From positions 59,081 to 70,060 of the forward strand of contig JAQGDQ010001017.1 of NCBI GenBank assembly GCA_030141605.1: DNA of 10,980 nucleotides. Reading direction: 5' to 3'. The notes beneath the pieces are model-generated. The model had not been told where the DNA came from, searched no databases, and saw only the letters and a program-made list of their open reading frames with translations. The position numbers and the translations under genes are program-made. Source of the stretch: Tubiluchus corallicola (Eukaryota; Animalia; Priapulida). This document shows positions 2-10,978 of the stretch, piece by piece. Numbering within the stretch: position 1 is the first letter of the stretch; every line of letters starts with the position of its first letter.

Positions 2-441
2 TGTTTGTCAAATTTAGTATAGCTATAAGTTACAAGTGGCGACACCTGGCCTCAATAGTCGCTTCCTACAGAGTTTCCGGTCATTTAGGTTTCAAGGTGT
101 ACATGTGGTGACGTAGCTGTGTGAACTCATGATTAATGCCAACGATGTACGTAAATTTTATTTAGTCATTTATTTTATTTTGTTGTAAGCTTCTCATTAA
201 TTTAATCATATTCGATGTTTTGGTAAAAATGAATCAGTTTATTAAAGAAATTTATATATTATTTCAGATAAAATGTAATATTTTGGGATGAAGCAAATAT
301 GACTACGGGGCATGTGCCATGAAAATAGTACAAACAATAAACAGTTACACTGAGCGAATGATGACTTTGTTTGTTTGTCTCCGTAAAGCCCAAGCAATTT
401 TATATCGGCATTCGACAATCCAGAGTGGACATTTTTATACA
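2..441 (+). repeat. Putative 5' LTR of the outer element
   Basis: Starts TGT (2-4), has AATAAA at 336-341 followed by a GT-rich tract (~366-380), and ends ...TTTATACA at 441, 118 nt before the gag ATG. Its size is similar to the inner LTR. The second copy is not in the window, so boundaries are unverified (ACA at 431 or 448 are alternative ends). Confidence 0.5.
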
Positions 442-559: not shown

Positions 560-3550
560 ATGATGTCGGACCAAACAACAAGGGAGAAATTAAAAAATAC
601 TACCCGTGATCAGCTGCGAGAAATGCTGCGGGCCAAACAACTGTCAGTTTCTGGTAGTAAAGAAGAGCTAATTCACAGACTCTTAGCAAGTCAGCAGAAA
701 CCAGATCATTCATATAATGTAACGTCATGTGAAGCGTCTGGTACGTCGTCGTATGCTGACGCAGCTACAGCGACAGCGCAGCATCAAGTTGGCGAGCGCA
801 GCCCTTCCAAAGCATCTTCAGGTGCTAGTCATTTGAAATCTACGAGACGGTCGAAGAAAAGTGCCAGGGAAGTAAAGTTGCATGAGATTAAGATTCAGGA
901 ACAGGAGCTGAAATTAAAAGCAATGAAGTTAAAACAGTTAAGACTTGAGAGTGAAGTTACTTCACATAGCAGTGCAACCAGTCAGAAGTCGCGTACAACC
1001 ATCACCTCGCCTGAAATCAAGGACGAGACTTTAGCTAGGAAACCCATGTCAACCAAGGACAAGGTTACCGATTGGCTTCAAGGAGTGCGTGACGTCACCA
1101 AAGCCCAGTCATCAGACACCAAGCCTGCAGTTCATCATACGTCTATGGAGGCCTATCTCACCATGGCAATGAACGACAGTTATGCTAAGGGAGCTCTTGT
1201 CTTGGCACACAGTTTGCGTCGAACTGGTACAACTCGACATCTAGCAATTTTGGTCACCCATACTGTTTCTAGCAGAGTTATGGCAGAGCTTAGTAATGTT
1301 TTTGATTATGTACAAATGATTGATTTATTAAAGAGTAGTGATTTTGATAACTTGCATTTGCTAGGTAGGCCAGAGCTAAATGTAACATTCTCGAAATTGC
1401 ACTGCTGGGCTATGACTCAGTTTACAAAGTGCGTTTACTTAGATGCTGATACTTTAGTATTAGATAATATTGATGAGTTATTCAATTATGATGAGCTTGC
1501 GGCTGCCCCAGATGTGGGGTGGCCTGATTGTTTTAATTCTGGAATGTTTGTATTTCAGCCTAATTTGGAAACTTACAGTAGATTGTTGTCACTATCACAA
1601 ACTGAGGCCTGTTCATTCGATGGCGGTGATCAGGGTTTATTAAATTTAGCCTTTCCGAACTGGAGTTCACAGTTTGACAAGCGCCTACCTTTTGTGTATA
1701 ATGCTGCCGTCCAAGGTCGTTACGGTTACCTTCCTGCAATGAAGCAGTTCAGTAGCAAGATTAAAGTTGCGCACTTTTTAGGCCGAAAGAAGCCCTGGGA
1801 TTATACTGAATATGTAAACGTCAATTTTTCGGATGACTATGAATCAGGTTTTCTTCGTAGATGGTGGAATATCTATTTATCTGATGTACAGCCCTTCTTC
1901 GAAAATTCTTCCAGTGAAGGTTTAGAACCTAGCGTTAAACAAACTACGCCGTTCTTCCATGCCGCATTTAAATCACCCCAGGTAGAACAAACTTTAAATA
2001 TTTCTGCACGTGACTTCGTCCCAGGGAATACGCAACTTCCGCTTCCGGCTACATCGCCTCAGGCTTCTTGTGGTAACGGGATACAAAATAATTCTAGGAA
2101 TTTCTCCGGTAGGGCTAGTCAGAATGACATGAACGTTTTTATGGACCTCATGTTAGAAGGCCAAAGACAACACTTAAATATGTACAATGCTATGCAGCTT
2201 CCACACGTGCAGCTTGAAACGTTTGATGGTGACGTAATGAAGTTCTGGAGCTTTATCAAGCGTTTCGAAGCCAGCGTGGAGAACTATACCCAAGATGATG
2301 CAGCGAGGTACACTAGGTTAGCCCAACTCTGCATTGGTAAAGCTAAAAGAGTTGTTGACAGTTGTAATTATATGGACCCCCGTTTTGCATATGGGCATGC
2401 TAAACAGCTTTTAACCGAAAGATTCGGCTCGCCATTTGTTGTCACACAGGCCTGGCTTTCCAGAATTGCTGAATTTGAGCCCATAAAGATAAATGAGCCG
2501 GGAAAGTTACAGGAATTTTCTGATTTGATTGTGGCTTGTGTGGAAACTTTGAAAATAATGAACAACGTTTGCGAAATTAGTACTCAATGCAGTTTGCTAC
2601 AAATAATTAAAAAACTCCCATTCAAGTTCCAGGATAGGTGGAAGGATGTTGTAGCCAGGCTTCTGAAATATGAGCACAGGAATCCGACGATATTTGATGT
2701 AGTCGAATTCATTAAGGACGCAGCTGACAAAATTAATCATCCGGTCTTTGGCGACATTAACGTTAGCCTGTCTACTAGGAGCCCAAAAGGTAGACGCGAC
2801 ACCAAAGCCAGGAATTTCGCCAGCTCAGCGCAGGAAACTGCATCAATTACGAAATGCAACAGTGAACGACAACCCGGAAATACAACCGGAAGTGGTGGCA
2901 AAATGGCTTCTCAACGCCTAGAGATGCCTTGTTTTCTATGTAACTCTACGGAACACCGTTCACTCAGGCTATGCAATAAATTTAAGTCAATGAATGATAC
3001 TGATAGATTGAAAACCGCCAGAAGAGAAGGTCTTTGCTTCAATTGTTTGATTAAAGGAAAGCACAGGGCTGCTCGATGCTTCAAAGCAGGATGCGACGTA
3101 GAAGGATGCAGACGTAAGCATTCAAATTTACTGCATGCTGCCTTGGAGAAAATGTCACCTTCTAAAAACAATGATGGAAGCAAGAAGGAAAAAGCGCCAA
3201 CACATTGTAAACCAGAAGCTTCTAGCAGTTGTGCTAGTATTAAGGAAGGCGGCAAAGCGGCTCTCCCTGTTGTCTCAGTTTTGGTTGAAGTTGATGGGAA
3301 GATGCCCGTGCGTACTTTAGCCCTACTTGACCCTGGCTCGACTAACACTTTTTGTACAAAGGCATTGTTCGACAAACTTGGGGCTACTGGACAAAAACGA
3401 ACGCTCTCTTTAACCACTATAGAAGAGAAATATTCCAAGATAAACACTTTAATCACGAAGATGTCTGTTACTGGGGTAAACACTGGCAATAAAATAGCTT
3501 TGCCTCATGTCTTCGTTAGGCCTGCATTGTTACTGGAAAAGGACTGCTAG
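560..3550 (+). CDS. gag: Gag-protease polyprotein of the outer element: SAP - glycogenin - capsid-like (DUF1759-type) - 3 Zn knuckles - N-terminal part of aspartic protease
   Basis: 996-aa uninterrupted ORF. Knuckles CFLCNSTEHRSLRLC, CFNCLIKGKHRAARC and CDVEGCRRKHSNLLH lie at 2930-3136. Protease Asp in LLDPGS is at 3329-3331. Confidence 0.92.
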   Translation: MMSDQTTREKLKNTTRDQLREMLRAKQLSVSGSKEELIHRLLASQQKPDHSYNVTSCEASGTSSYADAATATAQHQVGERSPSKASSGASHLKSTRRSKKSAREVKLHEIKIQEQELKLKAMKLKQLRLESEVTSHSSATSQKSRTTITSPEIKDETLARKPMSTKDKVTDWLQGVRDVTKAQSSDTKPAVHHTSMEAYLTMAMNDSYAKGALVLAHSLRRTGTTRHLAILVTHTVSSRVMAELSNVFDYVQMIDLLKSSDFDNLHLLGRPELNVTFSKLHCWAMTQFTKCVYLDADTLVLDNIDELFNYDELAAAPDVGWPDCFNSGMFVFQPNLETYSRLLSLSQTEACSFDGGDQGLLNLAFPNWSSQFDKRLPFVYNAAVQGRYGYLPAMKQFSSKIKVAHFLGRKKPWDYTEYVNVNFSDDYESGFLRRWWNIYLSDVQPFFENSSSEGLEPSVKQTTPFFHAAFKSPQVEQTLNISARDFVPGNTQLPLPATSPQASCGNGIQNNSRNFSGRASQNDMNVFMDLMLEGQRQHLNMYNAMQLPHVQLETFDGDVMKFWSFIKRFEASVENYTQDDAARYTRLAQLCIGKAKRVVDSCNYMDPRFAYGHAKQLLTERFGSPFVVTQAWLSRIAEFEPIKINEPGKLQEFSDLIVACVETLKIMNNVCEISTQCSLLQIIKKLPFKFQDRWKDVVARLLKYEHRNPTIFDVVEFIKDAADKINHPVFGDINVSLSTRSPKGRRDTKARNFASSAQETASITKCNSERQPGNTTGSGGKMASQRLEMPCFLCNSTEHRSLRLCNKFKSMNDTDRLKTARREGLCFNCLIKGKHRAARCFKAGCDVEGCRRKHSNLLHAALEKMSPSKNNDGSKKEKAPTHCKPEASSSCASIKEGGKAALPVVSVLVEVDGKMPVRTLALLDPGSTNTFCTKALFDKLGATGQKRTLSLTTIEEKYSKINTLITKMSVTGVNTGNKIALPHVFVRPALLLEKDC
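587..688 (+). other. SAP DNA-binding domain at the Gag N-terminus
   Basis: KLKNTTRDQLREMLRAKQLSVSGSKEELIHRLL fits the SAP pattern L..L...L..RGL...G.K..LI.RL. Confidence 0.85.
1145..1894 (+). other. Glycogenin catalytic domain (GT8), aa 196-445 of the Gag ORF
   Basis: Glycogenin signature motifs are colinear: NDSYAKGALVL, RPELNVTFSKLHCW, YLDADTLV (DxD 1442-1450), AAPDVGWPDCFNSG, SFDGGDQGLLN, LPFVYN, YGYLPA (acceptor Tyr 1721-1723), HFLGRKKPW, WWNIY. No introns. Confidence 0.96.
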
Positions 3551-4098
3551 GCCTTTAGCAAGGATGTAGAACAATGGCCGCATTTGCAAGGACTTCCCCT
3601 ATCGTTCACAGATACAGAAGACCTAACTGAACTGGGACTTTTGATCGGCCAGGATGTTCCTGATGCGCTGATTCCTCTTGAGGTACGAACAGGTCCTAGA
3701 CTAACGCCATATGCTGTGAAGACAAAGCTAGGCTGGACCCTTAATGGACCCATAGGAGGCGGCGTTCCTAATTTAGGGCGCATTTGTAGTAATTTAACCC
3801 AAGCCAATGCATTGTCATATGGAGAAACCAATTCCTTGCAGCAGCAAATAGAACAATTCTGGAAAATTGAAACTAGCGAGTCTGACAGACAATTCTCTAG
3901 AGACGATATGCGTGCTCTCGATATATGGGAGGCTTCAGTCACAAAAACACATGGGCATTACCAGTTGGACATCCCATTTAAATCTGAGAACGATGTTTTA
4001 CCAGATACGCTACAAATGGCTTCATCTAGATTGGAAAGTCTACGTAAACGGCTGCAGAGGAACCCAGAATTGCACAACCGATACACTATAGCTATGAA
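3551..4098 (+). pseudogene. pol: In-frame continuation of the outer pol (C-terminal protease and pre-RT region), after a TAG and truncated by insertion
   Basis: Same frame as 560..3550 (DC*AFSKDVEQWPHLQGLPL...LGLLIGQDVPDALIP...TKLGWTLNGP). The last residues of ORF 3584..4132 (VLSSLSACML) come from the inserted LTR. Confidence 0.88.
4094..4098. repeat. Probable 5-bp target site duplication ATGAA (left copy)
   Basis: The 5 bp left of the LTR are ATGAA. The two visible bases right of the other LTR (10979-10980) are AT, consistent with the start of the duplicate. Confidence 0.6.
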
Positions 4099-4561
4099 TG
4101 TTTTGTCCAGTTTGTCTGCCTGCATGTTGTAACCAAATAAAAATGATGAACACTTTGATACAGGTTGATTCCTTTATTGTAAAAAAAATGAAGCAGTGAA
4201 GCTGGTGTAGAGGGGGGTAGGTTTCAACATAAATTGCAGTCTTGACAAACTACATTATGAAACTCACCAATTACACTATTCACCAGCAGACTATGAGACC
4301 TGAACTACTACTGACCAACATACAATAGCCAGGACTCCTGTTACAGCTCATTAACTTTAGTTGAAACCCAGTAAATGGTATGTAAATAGATTGTACAGTA
4401 AACAGTTTAAGAGACAGGTAAATTAATTTTACAGCCAAAGGATGGCAGCACCTCCCCAAGATACTACAAGTTTCTGTTAATTCCAAGTCTAAAAAAAGCA
4501 TTCATTATGACACAACTGTATAACAAAAAATATATTATCAAATTGTTTCCTAAACAATACA
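4099..4561 (-). repeat. 3' LTR of the inner element (463 bp)
   Basis: Direct repeat of 10515-10978 with TGT...ACA termini. AATAAA on the - strand at 4173-4178. Confidence 0.97.
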
Positions 4562-4566
4562 CCCCC
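4562..4566 (-). promoter_or_regulatory. Short polypurine tract (GGGGG) abutting the 3' LTR
   Basis: The - strand reads TTTTTTTTTCATCTTGGGGG|TGTATTG. Confidence 0.65.
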
Positions 4567-4593
4567 AAGATGAAAAAAAAACGCGGTGCTCCT

Positions 4594-7500
4594 TTAAATC
4601 TCCCAACCATCTGCAGGAACAAGAACAACCAACCGCTGAACTGGCCGTCTTACCCTTGTATATGTCGCACCACCATAGTTCCTAGCATCCTCATCTGGTT
4701 TGATGTTTTTGTATTTGACGATGCAATGACGAACATTTCCATCTGATCCAGGAAACACCTCATCCACCATTGCCAAGCGATACTCTCCTCGCAGAGTATT
4801 GGTGTCAGCAACAAACACAACATCTCCTACTTGAATGTTCCGCTCTCTATGATGCCACTTCTGACGAACTACCATGGCTGGTGCACAGTCTCTGCTCCAC
4901 CTGCGCCAAAACGTGTCGACAATTGCCTGAATTACTCTAAAGCGATCTCTGTACGATGCCTTGTAGTTCCACGGACCTGGAGGTATGTTCACAGAGCTGC
5001 GACCAAGCAACATATCATTCGGTGTCAAAGCCTTGAAATGCTTCTCCTCTGAAATATGTACATGAAGAGGTCGCTGGTTTATTAGCTGCATCACCTCGTA
5101 AAGGACAGTTTGTAACTCGGAATAGCTCATGAGTGCACATCCTACTGCCAGTGAAATCGCCCTTTTTGCCGTATGAATCAACTTCTCTGTTGTCCCCTGC
5201 CACCATGGAGCATGTGCAGGGCTAAACTCCCAAGCAAATCCATTTGAAGCACTGAATGTGGACACATCTTTTCCTGCTAGCTGAAGATGCATTTCCAACA
5301 ATTCTTTGCCTGCTGCTCTCAGCTGCGACCCACCATCACTGAACATCTTTGTTGGCCAGCCTCTGATTGCACCAAACCGACGGAGACATGAAAGAAAGCT
5401 GCCAGTGGAGTAACTGTTCGCAAGTTCTATGTGGACAGCCTTTGTTATTAAACACACGAACAGAACTCCATATGCTTTCCCAGCTGATCTCTTATTGACC
5501 TCTCCTCTTACCCTAAATGGGCCAAACAAATCAACTCCTGTATTTGTCCAAGGTGGAGCTGGCTTAAGCTTTTCTTCTGGAAGAGGGCCCATTAGCTGTT
5601 TCGCTGCTCTGACATCAACACGTCTACAAGTAGTACATCTGTGCTTGACACTTTTGGCCAATTGCGTTCCACGAGGAACCCAGTACTTCCTGCGAAACTT
5701 TTCCAGAGTTGCAGCCACCCCAAGATGCCCTTGAGAATGAGCTTCGTCCATGAAAAGTCGTGTCAATGGATGTCCATATGGCAAAATAATAGGTAGCTGG
5801 TTGTCCCACGTGAAAATGACATAACACTGCATTCTACTGCCAACCACCCAAAATCCGTCACTGTTCTTCGTTGGTGCTAACCTTGTAAATCTACCAGTGG
5901 GTTTACCATCTTTATCTGGTGCCGATTTCTCTAACTCTTCCTCAACTGTGTCCTGAGCTTCTTTGATGACACGTCTCCTGGCTGCCTCCAACATCTCAGC
6001 TGTTACCATTACTGAACCACTGGAAAAATGGCGTTTCCCATCACCACACGGTTTCACTATTTGCAACACTCTTGCGACTGAACGAAGTAGCCTATTAACT
6101 TTGCTAAACCGAGATACATCAAATACTGACTCGTTCTCCTTGACAGAAACTAGTCCAACTGCTGCGATATCTGATAGTTCATCCTCACTGACTGAAGCAG
6201 GTGATACAGGCCATTCACTCCTTGGTAAACTCAGAAAATGTGGTCCATTTACCCATTCATCACTTGCTAAATCTGATGGCTTCTTTCCACGTGTCACCCA
6301 GTCTGCAATATTATGAGATCCATCGATCCACATCCACTCATCAAGTTTCCCGTCTTCTGAAAGTTTAGATGCAGATTGTATTTCTCCAACACGCACTCCC
6401 ACATAGCGATCGAATCTACTGCTTGTTTTTTGTAGCATCCCCAAAACTGTTTTCGAGTCAATGAGATGCAAAACCTCTGTGAAATTGTACCGCATTTCAC
6501 TTTCAATGAATTTCCTTATTCGTTTGCCCACTAGCGCACCATTTAGTTCAAGTCTTGGAATCGTGATGTGCTTCAGCGGAGCAATTTTACCCTTTGCCAT
6601 TATAAGCTGACTCTTACTACCTCCATCAGTTAATTCCCAATGAGCATAGGCGACAGCACCAAATCCTGTCTCACTAGCATCTGAAAGTATGATCAGCATC
6701 GGATCACCAACAGTTTCTCTTGGCTGCAAGCATCTTGGGAATGATAAACTCTGAACATCATAGAGTTCTTGAAAAAATTCAAAAAACTTCTCCCGCAGAT
6801 CCAATGGCAATGCATCATCCCAGCCAAGTTTCTTAACCCAAGTTTCCCTTAGCAGTATCTTACTCTTCATGGTGACTGGAGTAAGAAAGCCACATGGGTC
6901 AAACAGTGACATGACTTGGCTCATGACCATCCGTCTTGTCAAAATTGGTGGCATTTCTCTGGCTAACTCCTCGCGACATATGTCTGTACCTGTTCGTACT
7001 TTCCTCCTCCGTCTTGAGAAATTGATCTTTGCATGAAATTTGAATTTGTCCACCACTGAGTCCCACACAACTCCCAACACTCGACCTTCCTCTTCTGAAT
7101 TTGCAATCACTTTAACCGGAGAATTTTCTTCTGTAGTTGCTTCACGAGAAAAACGCCAACACTTCACTTTAAAATTCCCTCTTTTCAAAATATCTTCCAC
7201 CTCCTTTGCTAGTCCGAGGCCCCTTTCTCTTCCTTCACAAGACTCTAGAATATCATCAACATATGTTGACTCTTTTATGACCTTTGCTGCCTGAGGATGT
7301 GAGCTTTGGAACATTTCAGCAGTCATATACAATGCTTCAGTGGCAATCGCTCCCGCCGGACGGTCGCCAATATTTACAACAGTAATGATGTATACATCTG
7401 GTGCCCTATTTTCATCACAATCCCGCCAAAGAAATCTGTGACAGTGCTGATCATTGACATCCATTTCAACTGAGTTGTACATCTTCCGAATGTCCCCTTG

Positions 7501-10479
7501 AATAGCAAAAGAGTGCTCTCGAAACCTGCAAAACACGCCAAGCAAATTATTAAGGTAATTGTCTGGTCCTTTAGCCAAACATGAATTAAGTGAAATGTTA
7601 CCCTTGGCTTTTCTACTGCTGTTGAAAACAATTCGCACGGGTGTTGACTGGCTCTTAGGGTTAAGCGCAGCCAAGTGGCATAAATAGAAAACTGGCCCTT
7701 TCCAGTTATCAATCTCGGCTTGACTAAGTTTGCGTGCAGCACCTCGATCGACCATGTCTTGTATCTGACCTGAATACACAGCACCCCATTCTGTATTTAT
7801 TGCCAAACTTGTCTCACACGACTGTAAAGCTGACAGAGCTTGTTGATAGTTATCAGGCAACTGTGATCTGTCCACTATCCAAGGATACTTTGAAATCCAG
7901 ACTTGGCGATCTAGATCGTAGCTGAGTCCTTCACGGATCAAGCGTAGCTCACTTTCTTCCCGGAAACTGTAGGTATGCCCGGGTATAGGGCACTTACCAC
8001 ACCGACATGCCCCACATTTCGGCACAATCTGAGTTCCGAGTGCTTCAGCTGCAAAGAAGGTGTCACAGTTATCTTCTGTACCAACTGAAAATGATGACAT
8101 AGAATCACCCGACTGCTTTATCACTAGGCACTCCTGTGGATTGAGCTGTGGATGACTTAAAACTTCAGTACTGAAATTAGAGACCTTTGCATGAAAAATA
8201 GCTTCTTTCCAGCATCCATTTGCCTTTCTGGTAGTGTCAAATAGCTCTGGATGAGATCCACCCAAACACCTACCAAACATATTTTCCATAATGAAAAGAT
8301 GAGCGCCATCTGATCTGATTGGTTGAGGTTGCCATCCAGCTTTAAAATTGCCAAGTAAAAGCTCCACTGTGCCACTCGGACGCTTAAGGTCCCCAACTGA
8401 AATCCCTGGAAAAATACGCTTCACCACTGTCATGTCAACTGGAGAAATGCTTCCAGTTATTGAATCCAGGCCGTATGCCAAAAAGGTATGACGTTGATTA
8501 TCTTTATCCACTATCGTGACGTTATACACCTGAGTTTCCAAAGTTTCGACATGTCCCTGCAAAGTTTTAACATCAATTATCTCACTTTTTCCAGGGAACT
8601 TATTCTGCTTTGCACAGTCATGTGTTATAAACATTCCAGAACTTCCTGAATCAAAGAAAGCATTGATTTTACTGCCCCGTCTTGGTCCTTGAATCTCCAT
8701 TATATGAAGTAATGTTGTTGAATCAGTACCAGCACTATCCGTCACTGTAGCTGATGTAACCTTCTTAGCATCCACACAATTTGAAATAGTTGTTGAATCA
8801 ACCACTTCAACATTTGATTTTGAAACACTACCAGGCCCAGATTGCATCTCTTTGGAGCAGAGCATTGTATGGTGACCTCCATTCTGACACTTCTTGCACT
8901 TTGCTGTGCCCTTGCATACTACTGCCACATGATTTCCAAAGCAGATATAACAAGCACCATGCCTCTTTATTACATCTCGTCTTTGATTAACAGTCATATT
9001 TTTGAACTTCTCACAATCCCTGTTTAAATGGTCATTTACTTCGCATGTGCTGCACTTGAAGTAAGGTCTTTTGTCACCCATCCTCCCGTTTGCTTTACAT
9101 TCACGAGCAAAATGTCCTTGTTTGCCACATTTGAAACAGCTTTTTAACTTAGCACCGCCACCAGTCCCAAAGGCTTCGGGTTGAATGTCCTGATAATGGC
9201 TACTGACACTGCCAAACTGCTTTCGTACACCTGCAGTTAAATACTCTACGCGCTCCTTTTCCATTAACAAAAATGGTAAAAGAAGCTTGAAAGGTTCCAG
9301 TCTCTCCTCATCACTCTTGCTGATGATGTGCCTTGCCCATTCATTACGAATATCTTCCGGTAACCTGCGTTCAATTTCAGCTAGTGCCCCCACATTGCTA
9401 ATTTCCTGCAACATACCTAGTGACTTTAGTTTTGTACTGGCTTTTTCTATCCTGTCGACAAACTTTATGAAACCAACATGGTTGCCAGAAGATAAAGGCT
9501 TGACATCTCTGATTTCTGCCATGATGCTTTCAGTGTCTTTCTTTCTATCTCCATATTTTCTTTCAAGGCGTTTAATCATTTCAGCGTAGTTGTCATTACA
9601 GGCAGCTACTAGATCCGCCGCCTCTCCACTTAGTTTCTCATTCAAGATGGCAGCTCAAAATTCACTGGAATAATGTTTTTCGACAATCCTCCTCCAATTT
9701 GTGATGAACGTCGGCCATTCACTGTAGCCACCACGAAAACCGGGAATTGGTATTGCTTCCAATTTTGCTCTACCAGATGCTTGCTCATTTCCAGTGTTGT
9801 TTGACATGCCAGATGCATGATTGTTTTGCAATGATTGAGAACCAATATAGTTCATTGCTTTGTCATTTATCTCTTTAACAATTGTCTCTACGTCATTGAA
9901 TCTTCTATCCTCTTCCTGATAGTCAGCAAGCAAGGAAGCATATTTGGTGAATGATAACCTCACTTTTTCCAACAATGTCTGAATTTCTAACCGACAACTC
10001 TCCAGAACCTGAATTGCTGTATCTCCGCTCTCAAGCCTCTTTTCCTGATTTTCAATATGTCCATGCAATAAATGAATCAGTGTATCAAAATCTATTTTGT
10101 GCCACCTGATGATTTTTTCCTCTTCCTTCGTTGCTTTAGCTTCATCATCCTTCTCTTTCTTGAGTTCTTCAACTCGCCTGATTCTCCGCTTGTAGTCCTT
10201 AACTGATGCAAAAACGTTGTCTGCTCTTGAATATTCTTGCTCCATGTATTGAGAAGCCTTGTCTTCATCCACATTCTGCTGTTCTTGTTTGCATGCATTA
10301 AAGAATTCAATGTGGCATGCTTCCAAATGATTGAGTGCAGCCTCCACAGCATCCACCAGCCGATTAATTTCTTGCACACTGTCTTCCTCTTCAATTAAAT
10401 TTTGAAGCCTTCTCAGTACCCTTGTCAAAGCTGACTTTGCAACAGTTCTCCTCGTCTTTTTCTCCGAAGCTGACATCAT
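4594..10479 (-). pseudogene. gag-pol: Single gag-pol polyprotein frame of the inner element (5886 nt) with one in-frame TGA at 9655-9657
   Basis: ORFs 9655..10479 and 4594..9645 are in the same frame: HYSSEF*AAILNEKLSGEA. Domains are coiled coil, capsid-like (KLEAIPIPGFRGGYSEWPTF), 4 Zn knuckles, protease DSG (8644-8652), RT YVDD (7252-7263), RNase H DAS (Asp 6679-6681), and integrase HHCC plus D (5530-5532), D (5335-5337), E (5185-5187). Confidence 0.93.
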
Positions 10480-10500
10480 TAATTCCTATTGAAAGTGCTG

Positions 10501-10514
10501 AATTTATGTTGAAA
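10501..10514 (-). promoter_or_regulatory. Primer-binding-site position; complementary to the element's own LTR rather than a tRNA 3' end
   Basis: The - strand reads TTTCAACATAAATT directly after the LTR end, with no TGG. It is a perfect inverted repeat of 10639-10652. Confidence 0.7.
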
Positions 10515-10978
10515 TGTTTTGTCCAGTTTGTCTGCCTGCATGTTGTAACCAAATAAAAATGATGAACACTTTGATACAGGTTGATTCCTTTATTGTCAAA
10601 AAAAATGAAGCAGTGAAGCTGGTGTAGAGGGGGGTAGGTTTCAACATAAATTGCAGTCTTGACAAACTACATTATGAAATTCACCAATTACACTATTCAC
10701 CAGCAGACTATGAGACCTGAACTACTACTGACCAACATACAATAGCCAGGACTCCTGTTACAGCTCATTAACTTTAGTTGAAACCCAGTAAATGGTATGT
10801 AAATAGATTGTACAGTAAACAGTTTAAGAGACAGGTAAATAAATTTTACAGCCAAATGATGGCAGCACCTCCCCAAGATACTACAAGTTTCTGTTAATTC
10901 CAAGTCTAAAAAAAGCATTCATTATGACACAACTGTATAACAAAAAATATATTATCAAATTGTTTCCTAAACAATACA
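10515..10978 (-). repeat. 5' LTR of the inner element (464 bp)
   Basis: Matches 4099-4561 except for 3 substitutions and 1 single-base indel by manual alignment. AATAAA on the - strand at 10589-10594. Confidence 0.97.

Follow-up and report, generated by a model that had tools for sequence, protein, structure and literature searches.

Analysis of a 10,980-nucleotide stretch of the genome of the priapulid Tubiluchus corallicola (assembly GCA_030141605.1, contig JAQGDQ010001017.1, positions 59,081-70,060, forward strand; hereafter, the window) shows that its plus strand encodes, at 560..3550, the Gag-protease frame of a BEL/Pao long terminal repeat (LTR) retrotransposon with a glycogenin domain embedded in Gag. 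A first-pass annotation, made from the sequence alone, had described a domain of about 250 amino acids (aa) in frame between a SAP/coiled-coil N-terminus and the capsid region, and both the Pfam search and the alignment with human glycogenin GYG1 bear this out. To judge from the contigs and the pattern of substitutions, the fusion is very probably real and the domain under selection. We estimate at about 0.58 the probability of the complete reading, namely, that a BEL/Pao family carries a captured, selected and likely active glycogenin domain which would glucosylate Gag at the tyrosine Y388.

The Pfam profile Glyco_transf_8 matches aa 200-416 of the frame (E = 4.5e-18), and the segment 1145..1894 (plus strand; aa 196-445) aligns with residues 2-250 of GYG1 (E = 3e-84, approximately 52% identity). 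The first residue of the domain is a methionine, in line with where host glycogenins start, and the domain extends through the final helix of the fold, approximately to where the crystallised GYG1 constructs end. The AlphaFold model of the domain (predicted local distance difference test, pLDDT, 87) has a template modelling (TM) score of 0.92 to the structure 3t7m. Pfam, alignment and model together place the domain in glycosyltransferase family 8 (GT8), with the GT-A fold. With the human residue numbers read off the domain/GYG1 alignment, all the equivalents that the annotation had named are present, from K279 to K411 and including Y388. Thus, K279, N326, Q358 and K411 correspond to human K86, N133, Q164 and K218; D354/D357 to D160/D163; the DxD metal-binding motif D295-A-D297 (1442..1450, plus strand) to D102/D104; the acceptor tyrosine Y388 (1721..1723, plus strand) to Y195; and the metal ligand H405 to H212, at the beginning of a segment, aligned with the hosts, that extends to K411 (1772..1792, plus strand). 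Aspartate occupies both DxD sites in all 355 host domains compared and tyrosine occupies the acceptor site in 354 of the 355. The dimer contacts W321, D354 and Y390 (human W128, D160 and Y197) are kept as well, and the glycogenin-type motifs DGGDQG and HFLG are retained. Altogether, 20 of the 22 functional positions are in the host-majority or human form, the exceptions being Met202 and Met204, and 54 of the 58 near-invariant columns are kept, with most of the departures mild.

The C-terminal tail that binds glycogen synthase is a standard part of glycogenins (PMC12267440). A pattern for this tail has zero matches in the six frames of the window, and a slightly wider pattern matches 291 of 364 host proteins; the captured module is thus limited to the catalytic part of a glycogenin. 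Modelled in two copies, the domain scores 0.65, against 0.00 for the best of 3 controls, with pLDDT of at least 84 and at least 97% agreement of contacts between runs. Of the solved pairs, 21 of 30 attain the score mark applied to such models, as opposed to 0 of 23 single chains, and in eukaryotes 17 of 29 and 0 of 30, respectively; given that the GYG1 dimer is already solved, a pass shows likeness only. The modelled interface includes W321, D354, Y388 and Y390, and the same residues are listed as GYG1 dimer contacts in section 11 of PMC12267440. Both the GYG1 fold and a GYG1-type dimer are hence predicted for the domain.

The junctions were traced in sequencing runs X1-X4 (two studies), which contain 54-67% of the sampled words, with X5 and X6 added by species label; no RNA run was among those listed, and X6, presumed to be RNA, yielded 0 contigs on the window, neither of which bears on expression. 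A junction was counted as bridged when one of the contigs listed has at least 31 bases on each side of it. Among the five DNA or unlabelled runs, the 5' junction is bridged in 4, from three studies (X1, 1002-1314; X3, 831-1533; X4, 1113-1356; X5, 1060-1386, with 38 differences), and the 3' junction in 3, from two studies (X2, 1811-2415; X3, 1595-1948; X4, 1840-1962); the cover of X5 ends at 1717, from which nothing follows for the 3' junction. In the X5 pieces, 38 of 328 and 28 of 293 bases are unlike the window, so the 5' junction is common to lineages approximately 10-12% apart. No joint that skips the domain was seen (the first contig comparison contains three joints, the second none), and no in-frame loss of the 750-base domain occurs among the listed contigs. 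Misassembly, the first danger that the annotation had pointed out, would mean that the assembly had joined a retrotransposon to a host mRNA or retrogene. None of the listed contigs covers the whole element, but both junctions are bridged by independent contigs in independent studies, the 5' junction even in a lineage with about 88% identity; the fusion is not a misassembly, and we regard this explanation as largely refuted.

Read depth was taken as a hint only and gives no copy number. The long pieces of X1 have depths of 49 in the N-terminus, 58 in the domain and 57 in the capsid; those of X2, 1,274, 961-1,393 and 1,327, respectively; and those of X3, 23-26 across all three. At position 1170 in X2, the window letter is present at depth 81 and another letter at 1,432. 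Depth and sequence types together have the look of a multi-copy family, as inferred from contigs and not from separate loci, and the concern that the fusion might be a single copy is answered by several diverged sequence types. A single-locus gag-glycogenin fusion that serves the host would resemble Crtg14 of fungi, a domesticated host gene in which a Bel-Pao gag is fused to PEX14 (PMC8321522), and the window copy is indeed broken in pol. In contrast to Crtg14, however, the host domain here sits inside an element with an LTR and pol; the LTR-like depth, the pol frame downstream, the several sequence types in one sample (such as those at 1170) and the breaks, which seem private to the window copy, make domestication very improbable.

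For the domain, 40 of 88 differences between contigs and window were shown, 39 of them inside it, each classed singly: 24 of the 39 are silent, 15 are replacements and none creates a stop. The ratio of replacement to silent differences per site (pN/pS) is 0.16, or 0.24 when transitions are weighted (P = 4e-8 and 1e-5, respectively, relative to neutrality, values that are generous because the rows share ancestry, with only 39 of the 88 differences counted), well below the value of 1 which the annotation had named as the sign of a one-off passenger. X5 alone gives 15 silent differences of 22 (pN/pS 0.13-0.19). The element-wide comparison shows 40 of 265 rows, of which 13 were dropped (LTRs, the stop codon and rows behind it) and 7 domain rows duplicate the domain set; here, 7 of the 13 capsid-protease rows are silent (pN/pS 0.23-0.33), and the N-terminus rows (n = 7) give 0.22-0.30. 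The pN/pS of the domain is as low as that of the capsid-protease part. At 1818-1832, in the C loop of the domain, X4 has 12-base insertions and a 3-base deletion that keep the frame.

The closest proteins are animal glycogenins (50-59% identity), with those of molluscs and other invertebrates first among the matches listed. In a quick tree of 88 chosen rows, the domain groups with animal glycogenins, and its terminal branch is the longest there, 1.38 changes per column compared to a median of 0.16; with such a branch in such a tree, it obtains no firm place among the animals, and its grouping with a krill sequence was not trusted. As the annotation had stated, the domain has no stop, frameshift or intron, which holds for the window copy. 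The absence of introns together with the start at the first methionine of the host protein fits capture from an mRNA, and a simple scan detected no splice donor before the domain; an old capture of a host glycogenin mRNA is likely on these features. Of the annotation's proposal that a host mRNA was captured and then retained as a Gag module, the intronless animal glycogenin and its pN/pS speak in favor, with the frameshifted lineage of X4 described below as a counterexample. A 1,254-base contig of X5 matches only 1502-1539 (38 bases, the most conserved motif) and is unlike the window on both sides; it probably belongs to another glycogenin gene of this species, much more divergent and perhaps that of the host itself.

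No other Gag-glycogenin fusion was found among 18 longer proteins, the best 120 of 910 matches of near length, the best 120 of 2,252 shorter ones and the best 150 of 13,256 representatives, and none of the 389 fetched proteins has both a glycogenin and a Gag match. Similarly, none of 18 BEL/Pao Gag relatives contains a glycogenin domain; among these Gags, the 250-residue enzyme is peculiar to the element described here. Viral contigs gave no match; metagenome contigs gave 3 loci, all stand-alone glycogenins without Gag. Six glycogenin matches with long N-termini or several matching stretches were rejected as fusions (GT8 only), and so was P0273, whose high score reflects an internal duplication. 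Lancelet proteins P0002-P0004 have more than 3,000 residues and a glycogenin domain, located near the C-terminal end (2729-2994) in P0003. The fish protein P0346, named PIF1 helicase in its source, is an ordinary glycogenin.

Under the proposed mechanism, Gag would be made in the cytosol, where neighboring domains would pair, take UDP-glucose (uridine diphosphate glucose) and Mn2+, and glucosylate Y388 with a short alpha-1,4-glucose chain. The retention of the polar cavity residues on so long a branch suggests that the binding of the sugar nucleotide mattered and that the domain is likely active, and the retention of Y388 points to Gag itself as the likely acceptor; by these indications, the odds lean toward an active self-glucosylating enzyme. 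Following the layout of Ty3 and retroviral Gag, in which the N-terminal part is outside, a domain N-terminal to the capsid would lie on the outer face of the shell, exposed to the cytosol. The absence of the synthase-binding tail qualifies the suggestion of the annotation that each Gag builds its own glucan chain: the chain would not be expected to grow beyond a short primer unless it becomes accessible to the glycogen synthase of the host, for example, if the domain pairs with host glycogenin. A primed particle might then be taken into glycogen granules and parked or carried in glycogen-rich cells, such as oocytes. Such docking, to our mind the likeliest of the roles, is possible, if on balance doubtful, and is favored over an immune shield, the weakest of the roles, because no extracellular stage has been shown. 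Somewhat more doubtful yet is a scenario in which hundreds of Gag-borne domains would prime glycogen and host enzymes would extend it, such that the particle becomes the core of a granule, hidden and carried to germ cells.

Several observations weigh against this reading. Human GYG2 keeps the tyrosine and the dimer contacts and rarely self-glucosylates (PMC12267440), R707 of mimivirus keeps the tyrosine and cannot self-glucosylate (PMC9614988), and the glycogenin homolog Gat1 has the fold and works on another acceptor (bioRxiv 10.1101/764241); homologs with this fold may thus not self-glucosylate, and sequence alone is not decisive. In the window copy, Met replaces the Leu of the hosts at aa 202 and, at aa 204, the Thr found in 352 of 355 hosts (at codon 204, the contigs of all five covering runs differ from the window); the agreement of the domain with conserved columns is at the level of the lowest 1-4% of the 355 hosts; and its C loop has 17 residues between the anchors compared to a median of 22 (7% of 197 hosts are equally short) and lacks the proline that has been linked to GYG1 activity (PMC12267440). 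X1-X3 are one sample, possibly the source of the window itself, with X4 and X5 coming from other studies; the evidence for copies consists of sequence types and depth, with insertion sites and the 3' LTR outside it; the window copy is broken by a stop and a nested element; and selection could act on folding alone. Finally, the deepest glycogenin contig of X4 (1438-1782; depth 127, compared to approximately 25-40 for much of the element), which is the only X4 contig over 1543-1657, lacks 2 bases at 1593 and carries a replacement of D357. This frameshifted lineage shows that the domain can be lost. It extends over 1327-1782 and is perhaps a separately amplified fragment or a non-autonomous derivative.

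The prominence of this lineage in X4, together with the 18 Gag relatives that do without the domain, would be compatible with a tolerated passenger, that is, an insert merely kept in frame and folded to spare Gag-Pol, of no benefit to the element. A neutral insert remained stop-free in only 5% of simulated runs at 10% divergence, although frame-keeping alone also explains the freedom from stops; the active site, however, is kept across a long divergence and, as noted, none of the listed contigs shows the 750 bases lost in frame, so that we consider a passenger quite improbable. The drift at conserved columns and the short C loop without the GYG1 proline are in line with a binding module, a domain retained for Gag dimerisation or for pairing with the glycogenin of the host that has little or no self-transfer activity, as in GYG2; the dimer surface, kept and modelled (a pass by likeness), and the precedents of GYG2 and R707 would agree with this. 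The polar cavity residues K279, D295, D297, N326, Q358, H405 and K411 should be dispensable for folding and pairing, and yet all of them survive the branch of 1.38 changes per column; accordingly, we rate a pure binding role as unlikely, albeit deserving attention.

Self-glucosylation of Gag by an active domain, which we prefer, can also be contrasted with a released enzyme, cut free by the protease of the element or started at Met196, whose target would be the priming of glycogen in the host, the pools of UDP-glucose or some other acceptor, and not the particle. The match between the domain methionine and the host start, the low-complexity linkers that flank the domain, and the action of R707 and Gat1, both glycogenin homologs, on other acceptors are all compatible with release. 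Against release, the domain retains its acceptor tyrosine together with both glycogenin-type motifs, DGGDQG and HFLG, and the cleavage site and the second start are postulated only, which leaves release slightly less probable than a binding module.

Compared to GYG1 (GT8; 3t7m, 1ll2), the domain has the same fold and metal site and the equivalent acceptor tyrosine and dimer contacts, and differs in that it has no linker, tail or introns, has a shorter C loop, is embedded in Gag and evolves fast. Fixed extra domains in LTR retrotransposons have been described as rare and viewed as pointers to host-element interactions (PMC9289625). The AlkB demethylase of an orchid Gypsy element (PMC9289625) is likewise of host origin and has become fixed in an LTR retrotransposon, and the Burro polyproteins of planarians (PMC6431247) contain a host domain in frame with Gag; these elements are Gypsy, with cargo acting on RNA, ubiquitin or apoptosis, whereas here a sugar-storage enzyme resides in a BEL/Pao element, N-terminal to the capsid. 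More broadly, the cargo in the published cases consulted acts on RNA, chromatin, ubiquitin, apoptosis or cell entry. Among parasite-encoded enzymes, the glycogenin-like R707 of mimivirus, 26% identical to glycogenin, is a separate gene (PMC9614988), and P13 of baculoviruses, a GT8 protein only by prediction, is a separate gene of a large DNA virus (PMC4133818). No glycogenin in an LTR element was found in the literature searched, the scope of which excluded supplements, Repbase, Dfam and most subscription papers; the string 'glyco' is absent from the main text of PMC3118150 and PMC8556966, and an unremarked copy could sit in supplements or repeat libraries. If our reading is true, a mobile element would be tied to energy storage through a self-glycosylating capsid protein in the cytosol and would constitute a natural experiment with a glycogenin deprived of its synthase-binding tail.

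The frame 560..3550 runs uninterrupted for 996 codons between stops, is closed by the in-frame stop described below, and has Pfam matches in the order SAP, Glyco_transf_8, DUF1759. The SAP domain (PF02037; aa 15-42; 602..685, plus strand) has E = 6e-5 for the N-terminal piece and 22.9 bits, slightly below the cut-off of 23.9; the glycogenin-free Gag relative P0238 has a SAP domain at aa 8-42. A serine-rich, coiled-coil-like N-terminal region of Gag, as read from the sequence, follows (686..1144, plus strand), with weak matches to the N-termini of the 18 Gag relatives (best E = 3e-4 in this small set). Downstream of the glycogenin domain, a short motif common to glycogenin-free Gag relatives precedes the capsid (1994..2017, plus strand); its pattern, drawn up post hoc from these proteins, matches 9 of 19 Gags, the window included, compared to 2 matches in 245,111 residues of glycogenins. 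This motif is found upstream of the capsid also in the BEL/Pao Gags P0140, P0144, P0179, P0191 and P0247. It resembles, we presume, PAM2, the docking site for poly(A)-binding protein, although Pfam makes no PAM2 call.

The capsid region (DUF1759; aa 555-696; 2222..2647, plus strand) scores 27 bits against a cut-off of 25.4, which identifies a Pao-type Gag; all 15 scanned Gag matches contain DUF1759, and 2 of them also a Pao peptidase domain. From capsid to protease, the nearest BEL/Pao sequences (P0140/P0268, P0150 from Lineus, P0171 from Patiria, and P0238) are 34-41% identical. The triple Cys-His box of the nucleocapsid (aa 791-805, 826-840 and 845-859; 2930..3136, plus strand) and the protease active-site motif LLDPGS (aa 922-927; 3323..3340, plus strand) are hallmarks of Pao/BEL elements (PMC554778), with boxes 1 and 2 each one spacer residue longer than the patterns given there. 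Sinbad and its kin, in the same source, have in common with this element the DUF1759 Gag, the triple Cys-His box, the LLDxG protease and a single Gag-Pol frame. The rest of the protease, including the LIG motif beyond the stop, and the start of pol continue in the same frame (3551..4098, plus strand), where 299 residues, with the stop read through as X, match BEL/Pao polyproteins at 37-43% identity. The reverse transcriptase, RNase H and integrase regions of the outer element lie beyond the cut made by the nested element and the end of the window.

A likely 5' LTR of the glycogenin-bearing element occupies 2..407 (plus strand, ends approximate): the region 1-462 is approximately 4-10 times deeper than the interior of the element in 4 of 4 runs, with the same reservation on depth as above, and contigs start at 378 in 4 of 4 runs, which fits an LTR branch near 407. 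The window contains no partner LTR of this element and no tRNA genes, and no clear primer-binding site was seen by eye.

The partial protease with its stop, the nested element, Met204 and the missing tail are features beyond those of the first-pass annotation. The stop (3548..3550, plus strand) interrupts the protease; in 4 of 4 runs the contigs have another codon here than the window, and those of X1 and X2 continue beyond 4100 into different sequence, so that the stop and the nested insertion both look private to the window copy. Contig loose ends upstream of 4099 disagree, as expected from many insertion sites. The nested element (4099..10978, minus strand), an unrelated BEL/Pao element without glycogenin that truncates the pol frame, encodes a Pao peptidase, reverse transcriptase and integrase (Pfam) and is 20% identical to the outer Gag-protease. 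Its LTRs (4099-4560 and approximately 10515-10978) are identical at 459 of 462 positions, and the left flank 4094-4098 and the final two bases of the window are consistent with duplication of the target site; it was inserted recently. The gag of the nested element has one in-frame stop, at 9655-9657.

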